Below are positions 6,908 to 7,083 of a DNA stretch of 54,876 bases, one piece after another (position 1 is the stretch's first letter; each line of letters begins with the position of its first letter). The translations under genes and the position numbers were made by a program. A model generated the notes under the pieces. The model was not told where the DNA came from, did not search any database, and saw only the letters and a program-made list of their open reading frames with translations. Source of the stretch: a virus (lineage: Duplodnaviria; Heunggongvirae; Uroviricota; Caudoviricetes); IMG/VR virus record IMGVR_UViG_3300030250_000013, one strand, 5' to 3'.

Positions 6908-6944
6908 GTATCTTTCCTTCAGTTAATATCGAATCGTGAAAAAA

Positions 6945-6988
6945 GTTTAAAATAGTTCTTGACGTATTGCAACTTATTCCTCTAACAT
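6945..6988 (+). promoter_or_regulatory. conserved phage promoter module, copy 3
   Basis: GTTTAAAATAGTTCTTGACG (-35 6959-6964), 18-nt spacer, -10 TAACAT. Confidence 0.55.
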
Positions 6989-7010
6989 CTGCATCAACGA
7001 AAGGCGAGTG

Positions 7011-7051
7011 TAAAAATAATTCTTGACAGATTACACAACACCTTTTAAAGT
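7011..7051 (+). promoter_or_regulatory. conserved phage promoter module, copy 4
   Basis: TAAAAATAATTCTTGACAG (-35 7023-7028), 17-nt spacer, -10 TAAAGT (7046-7051); 30 nt upstream of the gene at 7084. Confidence 0.6.
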
Positions 7052-7083
7052 TAGCGATAACCAAACAACAAGAGGAAAACGTA

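Follow-up and report, generated by a model that had tools for sequence, protein, structure and literature searches.

The window analysed in this study, which is the whole 54,876-nucleotide stretch of viral DNA, contains an intergenic region from which two operons diverge (Table 1). The ORF coordinates bore out what an earlier note on this DNA had given for the region, namely a gap of 176 bp between a helicase start at 6907 and a plus-strand start at 7084, and the helicase GTG at 6907 agrees with the annotated start of 9NA gp70. The leftward operon encodes, in this order, the SF2 helicase, a 3'-5' exonuclease and a primase-polymerase/D5_N protein. The rightward block starts with the 256-aa protein, which has no Pfam match, and continues with a DUF2800 PD-(D/E)XK nuclease, a gp2.5/Enc34-like SSB and a DNA polymerase. 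The GC content of the gap is 33%, versus 43.8% for the window.

Over positions 6000-8000, the window is 95% identical to Escherichia phage KarinMuster_Bas82 (Bas82) and 91-94% identical to the Salmonella phages Sasha, Sergei, Solent and FSL SP-062 and the E. coli phages AVIO78A, PJ16 and PDP46, and Salmonella phage 9NA and the Klebsiella phage group match in the coding part only (~75%). Since the nucleotide matches are to the Bas82 and Sasha types and the match to 9NA is limited to coding sequence, the window can be assigned to a Sashavirus/Nonanavirus-type ('9NA-like') virulent siphophage. The IMG/VR contig L017 is identical to the window across the region, and searching IMG/VR with the 256-aa protein and the helicase alignment recovered the same close relatives and nothing wider. 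The comparison comprised 10 Sasha-type relatives (seven GenBank records and three IMG/VR contigs), nine loci of the 9NA/Klebsiella group, and distant relatives drawn from a GenBank phage set, namely the Flyfo podovirus Tbat2_2 and Morganella phage Henu15 (helicase 58-61% identical) and Proteus phages. These form four lineages (Sasha-type, 9NA/Klebsiella, Tbat2_2/Morganella and Proteus phages), across which the helicases are 58-62% identical.

Table 1. Features of the divergent region between the helicase operon and the nuclease/SSB/polymerase operon; promoter elements and start sites are predicted.
Feature	Position	Strand	Remarks
SF2 helicase (ResIII/Helicase_C)	5240..6907	-	first gene of leftward operon
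Divergent intergenic control region	6908..7083	.	176 bp, between leftward and rightward operons
Shine-Dalgarno GAAGGAAAG of helicase	6912..6920	-	homologous to 9NA gp70 start region
P_left -10 TAAACT	6944..6949	-	17-bp spacer; predicted start ~6936
Distal module copy GTTTAAAATAGTTCTTGACGTATTGCAA	6945..6972	+	TTGCAA flavour of the 26-nt module
P_dist -35 TTGACG	6959..6964	+	with its -10, PWM rank ~65 of ~110,000 positions
P_left -35 TTGCAA (palindromic)	6967..6972	-	2 bp from P_dist -35
P_dist -10 TAACAT	6983..6988	+	18-bp spacer; start ~6993-6995 estimated from spacing
Vestigial translation-initiation region	7001..7013	+	SD-like AAGGCGAG, then GTG-TAA; in P_dist leader
Proximal module copy GTGTAAAAATAATTCTTGACAGATTACA	7008..7035	+	GATTACA flavour; one extra A relative to relatives
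P_prox -35 TTGACA	7023..7028	+	PWM rank 3 of ~110,000 positions
P_prox -10 TAAAGT	7046..7051	+	17-bp spacer; predicted start ~7058
Shine-Dalgarno AAGAGGA and ATG of 256-aa gene	7070..7086	+	RBS annotated in Sergei and Sasha
256-aa protein, 9NA gp68 homologue	7084..7854	+	first gene of rightward operon

Both plus-oriented copies of the promoter module were found with their -35 hexamers where the earlier note had put them (6959-6964 and 7023-7028). The distance of 66 bp that it gave was a small counting error, as a repeat finder returned the two copies as a 23-nt direct repeat, 83% identical, 64 bp start-to-start. The corresponding spacing in the relatives is 63 bp because the window has one extra A in the run at 7011-7015, which is shared with L017. 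Relative to the 14-mer core of the module, the proximal copy has no mismatch and the distal copy has two; in the distal copy, AATAGTTC and TATTGCAA replace AATAATTC and GATTACA. The G-for-A variant reported for the distal copy (AATAGTTCTTGACG) was confirmed, and each of the 10 Sasha-type relatives examined carries it as well.

All three candidate promoters combine a -35 hexamer near TTGACA with a TAnnnT hexamer at a spacing of 17-18 bp. P_prox (TTGACA-17-TAAAGT) matches the consensus at 10 of 12 positions, P_dist (TTGACG-18-TAACAT) at nine, with a PWM score of 10.0, and P_left (TTGCAA-17-TAAACT) at eight, which is below the threshold of a simple scan; by PWM, P_left ranks ~85 of ~110,000 positions, ahead of every other minus-strand site in the gap. 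The predicted leaders are ~25 nt from P_prox to the ATG at 7084, ~30 nt from P_left to the GTG at 6907, and 89 nt from P_dist to the same rightward gene. Since 6995-7083 contains no ORF apart from GTG-TAA, P_dist and P_prox would constitute co-oriented tandem promoters of one operon. In the GenBank record of AVIO78A, the site equivalent to the proximal copy is annotated as a promoter and the distal copy is not annotated; according to the AVIO78A paper, its promoters were located by motif scanning. Our literature search, itself incomplete for the group and not covering its main genomics paper, returned no transcription start data for any 9NA-like phage and no description of these promoters.

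The same module is used repeatedly along the genome. Alignment of 13 window copies gave the 26-nt consensus tTTAAAATAATTCTTGACrGATTaCA, and its core AATAATTCTTGACA occurs 13 times in the window with at most two mismatches, against 0.71 expected, a number equalled in 0 of 100 shuffles. All 13 modules lie in gaps and are oriented toward the downstream gene; a TAnnnT hexamer follows the -35 by 17-18 bp in every one, and a Shine-Dalgarno sequence with a start codon is located 45-60 nt past the -35 in 12 of them, the distal copy being the only one without a gene directly downstream. Under a simple sigma-70 weight matrix, the modules account for 10 of the top 20 sigma-70-like sites in the window. 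Bas82, 9NA and Carvaje have comparable numbers of module sites, and the module is thus a repeated element of the 9NA-like phages (Nonanavirus, Sashavirus and Carvajevirus). When the surrounding 2 kb (6000-8000) were scanned for the generic sigma-70 consensus, no enrichment was seen (2 sites versus 3.0 expected), so the significance of the sites derives from the repetition and gene-directed orientation of the module and not from the hexamers alone. The lack of excess in that scan is what chance sigma-70-like matches without promoter function would produce, yet such a reading is hardly credible given the 13 occurrences, the aim of every copy at a downstream gene, and the maintenance of the arrangement in lineages whose intergenic DNA is otherwise unalignable.

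The modules are best read as predicted host sigma-70 promoters used genome-wide. No phage RNA polymerase or sigma factor was found among the 55 non-structural ORFs (Pfam, PHROGs) or the replication proteins of the window, and the annotated genes of Bas82, 9NA, Carvaje and Tbat2_2 include none either. The modules head blocks of small genes and also the head-tail operon (32571, minus strand), and therefore they are not an early-only class. A further strong sigma-70-like site, TTGACA-17-TATTGT, lies at 28671 (minus), just past the major capsid gene; Bas82, 9NA and Carvaje share it, and the head-tail operon may have an internal promoter here.

The conservation of the 26-nt module, in particular of the GATTACA block in the spacer, greatly exceeds what contacts with sigma-70 would account for, and therefore something besides plain RNA polymerase recognition may act on the module. 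One possibility, which we regard as unlikely, is that the module is also an operator for a phage or host DNA-binding protein, with the copies 63-64 bp apart being bound cooperatively so as to switch off or redirect the region. Sigma-70 makes no base-specific contacts in the spacer where GATTACA is conserved, the copy spacing equals six helical turns, the phage encodes candidate DNA-binding proteins (NinH, ParB-HTH and a weak HTH_17), and the window consensus has, by inspection, a partial dyad with the -35 at its centre, TAATTC-N5-GGATTA, in which six of eight positions are symmetric. This dyad, however, is statistically unconvincing in A/T-rich sequence and is absent from the module version of Tbat2_2 (AAAATATCGCTTGACr, with a loose 3' part), and no CI/Cro-type repressor was found among the 55 non-structural ORFs. 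Moreover, a much clearer family of palindromic sites exists elsewhere in the genome and is absent from the gap, and by eye no convincing CRP, FNR, IHF, Fis or DnaA site was seen in the module.

One sequence resembling the module but with a replaced -35 also bears on the operator reading and is to be counted in its favour. This antisense sequence with module-like flanks, TTTTAAATAATTC-TATACG-GTTTACC, occurs at 11768-11800 (minus), right after the stop codon of the DNA polymerase gene, and is kept in Bas82, 9NA and Carvaje, which makes four genomes with the window. In 9NA and Carvaje, a second copy of this kind (-35 replaced by TAAACA) follows the helicase gene. Against the operator reading, the upstream half of the module, AAAAATAATTCTTGAC, is also found in unrelated phage promoters, so that a generic UP-like tract with a -35 would suffice. 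A loose tandem pattern, TTCTTGACN{45,75}AATTCTTGAC, matched IMG/VR 120 times, mostly by chance, and the only informative matches were a Sasha-type contig and three unrelated contigs (L102, L135, L091) in which AAAAATAATTCTTGAC is combined with a consensus -10 to form an apparent promoter; tandem pairs 67-72 bp apart were present twice. From these contigs, the upstream half of the module appears to be a generic strong-promoter solution.

The palindromic family mentioned above consists of the 19-mer TAATRCACAAYRTGYAYTA, with 13 strand-hits versus 0.49 expected, corresponding to eight distinct intergenic sites and one match with three mismatches at 31963-31981. The eight sites are confined to two long gaps. 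Two of them (32779-32797 and 32842-32860) are 63 bp apart between divergent modules at the start of the head-tail operon, and six (49401-49419, 49537-49555, 49690-49708, 49711-49729, 49743-49761 and 49767-49785) lie in a 395-bp gap upstream of a TerS-like ORF. Their appearance is that of operators or iterons bound by a dimeric protein, for instance at a late regulator target, pac site or origin. At positions equivalent to these two gaps, Tbat2_2 (L146) has intergenic regions of 500-850 bp (28989-29846 and 43585-44113) with long shared repeat blocks rich in TTGCAG and TGCAAC motifs. Perfect in-frame tandem repeats were also noted within coding sequence, at 50400-50496 (21 bp x 4.6, in ORF 49809-50618), 9615-9694 (30 bp x 2.7, in the SSB gene) and 32286-32336 (21 bp x 2.4, in ORF 32165-32542).

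The palindrome arrays are relevant to another reading of the gap, that it is or contains a replication origin activated by transcription from the tandem promoters, as in T7. The location between the helicase-primase and nuclease-SSB-polymerase operons, the low GC content and the predicted tandem promoters would all suit an origin. Nevertheless, the gap has no iterons or repeats besides the modules, the GC skew tracks gene orientation only, the tandem arrangement is missing in 9NA-type phages, and the repeat arrays at 49401-49785 and 32779-32860 look more like protein-binding origins or pac sites. Therefore, we consider an origin in the gap very unlikely. An attenuator or riboswitch was ruled out, since Rfam gave no match at the gathering threshold in the window, nor at E<=1 in 6700-7300, and the leaders of P_dist and P_left folded no better than shuffled sequences (z-scores of 0.02 and 0.65). 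A tRNA search found none.

No module is aimed at the helicase operon, and therefore its leftward promoter must lie in the gap. The TTGCAA that the earlier note had proposed as an opposite-strand -35 overlapping the first copy does fall within the conserved 3' part of that module, but it does not overlap the -35 hexamer. Paired with TAAACT, it is the best candidate for a leftward promoter of the helicase-primase operon, and it is the best-supported element of the earlier reading, because four lineages retain this hexamer at the junction.

Among the Sasha-type genomes, all 10 relatives keep the whole arrangement of the gap almost base for base. The gap is 97-99% identical and the flanking genes 90-98%; thus, its conservation equals or exceeds that of the genes around it. 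Although none of the eight variable columns among the 163 aligned falls in a hexamer, this is not significant (p = 0.14), and constraint is inseparable from recent common ancestry because these genomes are too similar.

The core was also compared in the other lineages. In 9NA and the Klebsiella phages, the helicase junction has a single module, ATAAAATAATTCTTGACACATTGCAAC, with the core TTGACA-CA-TTGCAA and the outward hexamers TATGAT and TAACCT; read on the opposite strand, TTGCAA-17-TATGAT is followed by a 49-aa ORF and then the helicase, and the 9NA TATGAT is in the same register as the -10 of P_left in the window. The core in Tbat2_2 and Henu15 is TTGACG-CA-TTGCAA, the -10 on the helicase side being TAAAAT and that on the side of the nuclease operon TAAAGT, and the Proteus phages PmiS-Isfahan and RS10pmA have TTTACA-AA-TTGCAA with the same -10 hexamers as Tbat2_2 and Henu15. 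Relative to the genes, the 14-bp core has one orientation in the 9NA/Sasha group and the opposite one in the other two groups. What is constant in the four lineages is a pair of -35-like hexamers 2 bp apart, one of which is always TTGCAA, each with an outward TAnnnT at 17-18 bp; the intergenic DNA around the core is otherwise not alignable between lineages, and the chance expectation of TTGACNNNTTGCAA is 0.026 per genome. The repetition, conservation and homology of these sequences are matters of direct observation. They suggest two opposite-strand -35/-10 pairs built on one shared core and kept by selection, and they support the structural reading of the earlier note, a divergent control region with two co-oriented promoter modules.

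The TTGCAA hexamer may also be meaningful elsewhere in the genome. It stands in place of the usual TTACA in exactly three window modules (6959, 36779 and 40773), and these are three of the four modules located at a divergent junction where the opposite gene lacks a module, versus none of the nine other modules (Fisher p = 0.014). The rule has exceptions: the module of the TerL junction (44221) has GATTACA, and several divergent junctions in 9NA and Carvaje have TTGCAG, TTGCAT or TTACAG. In addition, some other variants fit the TTGACA consensus as well as TTGCAA does. At the TerL junction (44145-44260), no good opposite-strand sigma-70 site is visible, and TerL may rely on read-through or an activator.

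Concerning the origin of the tandem pair, the two copies have different counterparts in the distant relatives. The -10 and leader of P_prox (TAAAGT...AACAACAAGAGGAAAACGTAATG-TTCGAA) align with a second promoter of Tbat2_2 (~18170) and RS10pmA, immediately ahead of the gp68-like gene; between this gene-proximal promoter and the junction promoter, Tbat2_2 and the Proteus phages have two to four small genes. The leader of P_dist (CAACGAAAGGCGAG), for its part, aligns with the junction leader and Shine-Dalgarno of Tbat2_2 and Henu15 (CAACGAAGAGGAGATT), and the vestigial Shine-Dalgarno at 7001-7013 is homologous to that of the first small gene after the junction promoter in those phages; in the window, the leader ends in GTG-TAA and is followed directly by the proximal module. 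The single copy of 9NA aligns better with the proximal copy in its leader and with the distal copy in TTGCAA and its left flank. Within the window, the module closest to the downstream part of P_dist is that at 36779, also of the TTGCAA type. From these alignments, the tandem pair most likely represents two ancient promoters joined by loss of small genes in the Sasha lineage, and the arrangement looks like a juxtaposition rather than a purpose-built double promoter. The main role of the distal copy may be to provide a bidirectional core that feeds the helicase operon. Such an origin weakens the case that selection for very strong expression produced the doubling, although the doubling may be of benefit. 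The early timing and the very strong or differentially regulated expression that the earlier note put forward are conjectural.

Gene loss could have gone further in its consequences, leaving the tandem pair as an evolutionary scar in which P_prox performs nearly all rightward transcription and the distal copy, its rightward activity being negligible or incidental, is kept for the TTGCAA/TAAACT promoter of the helicase. We take this to be a serious possibility, though less probable than two working rightward promoters. It is favoured by the 9NA-type phages, which drive the same operon from one module; by the weaker hexamers of P_dist, its 18-bp spacer and the G variant in its UP-like tract; and by the standing of the distal module as the only one of 13 without a following gene, with a vestigial Shine-Dalgarno and GTG-TAA in its leader. 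However, the -35 and -10 of P_dist are intact in all Sasha-type genomes, its PWM score is comparable to that of the module at 32571 at the head of the structural operon, and the rightward half of the junction core appears to drive genes in Tbat2_2 and the Proteus phages.

The left edge of the gap was observed to be mosaic, with a boundary at about 6908-6924 and the 5' end of the helicase gene. The window, L017 and PJ16 have the 9NA-like helicase start (GTGAGTCAACAACC) and Shine-Dalgarno in common, and the remaining Sasha-type genomes have a different helicase N-terminus (ATGAAAGCTCG...); one version gives way to the other at TAATATCG, which is ~20 bp to the left of the distal module. On the 9NA side, the annotated gp69 (81 aa; L008 1243-1488) starts beyond the junction promoter, so that the ORF crosses the promoter, and in the Klebsiella phages (L009, L010) an ORF of 47 to 49 aa with a good Shine-Dalgarno lies downstream of the predicted leftward start. 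The 9NA gp69 annotation is probably too long.

Taken together, the gap is probably a compact three-promoter region read by the host sigma-70 RNA polymerase, with a tandem pair that arose through gene loss. Its bidirectional core at 6944-6988 (TTGACG-TA-TTGCAA, each -35 having a TAnnnT 17-18 bp outward) would act leftward as P_left, starting the helicase-exonuclease-primase operon, and rightward as P_dist. The A/T tract upstream of each core promoter would double as the -10 and spacer of its opposite partner, and with this tract shared, P_left and P_dist probably cannot hold open complexes at the same time and so would compete. P_prox, 64 bp downstream, is the strongest-looking of the sites, with an A/T-rich UP-like tract upstream, and as the own promoter of the rightward operon with its short leader it would free expression of the nuclease/SSB/polymerase operon from the competition between P_left and P_dist; after the gene loss, the proximal copy would no longer need a TTGCAA half. 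Promoter activity and start sites are what we infer here, along with mutual exclusion and any effects on the level or timing of expression. More speculative, and in our judgement distinctly unlikely, is an extension in which the module has a dual purpose and forms a phased cooperative switch by which host RNA polymerase is redistributed between the two operons during infection; some phage or host factor would then read the GATTACA and ATAATTC flanks of copies placed six helical turns apart beside the core.

The region belongs to a known kind of system, that of phage promoters of host type arranged in tandem and back to back. The A1/A2/A3 promoters of T7 and the early promoters of T5 are tandem strong early coliphage promoters recognised by the host RNA polymerase, and the predicted pair resembles them in being co-oriented, of sigma-70 type, with near-consensus -35 hexamers and A-rich upstream tracts, in series before an operon. 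It differs in its spacing of only 64 bp, at which the downstream edge of a polymerase bound to P_dist would reach the UP-like tract belonging to P_prox, in the use of the same module at the head of the structural-gene operon (32571, minus), in its apparent origin from gene loss, and in being predicted from sequence.

Back-to-back divergent promoters with overlapping upstream regions were reportedly reviewed by Beck and Warren in 1988, and lambda PR/PRM is a phage example. As in that class, the predicted promoters lie on opposite strands, share one short region and serve functionally linked operons; as points of difference, the -35 hexamers are only 2 bp apart, the predicted start sites are ~58 bp apart, and no operator or regulator was found in the present analysis. 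The symmetric bidirectional promoters that Warman et al. are said to have described in 2021 share the -10 element and have start sites ~18 bp apart, in contrast to the adjoining -35 hexamers and the ~58 bp here. The primary origin of T7 contains the tandem promoters phi1.1A/1.1B followed by an A/T-rich region, and the gap is similar in having predicted tandem promoters, A/T-richness and adjoining replication genes, but its promoters are of host type and not of phage-polymerase type, and it shows no sign of origin function.

This study provides a map of a replication control region, with predicted starts at ~6936 (-), ~6994 (+) and ~7058 (+), for a phage group in which our literature search, whose coverage was incomplete, found no published transcription map. 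Since E. coli K-12 in which the O16 O-antigen has been restored is a host for the near-identical Bas82, a phage of the BASEL collection, these predictions are cheap to test. All of this is ordinary promoter biology and leaves the current understanding of bacterial promoters unchallenged. For these phages, the case would show how a tandem promoter can arise via gene loss, and the TTGCAA flavour of the module is a proposed rule for where opposite-strand genes lacking a promoter of their own may obtain transcription, possibly serving the helicase operon, the portal gene and the block leading to the head-morphogenesis gene.
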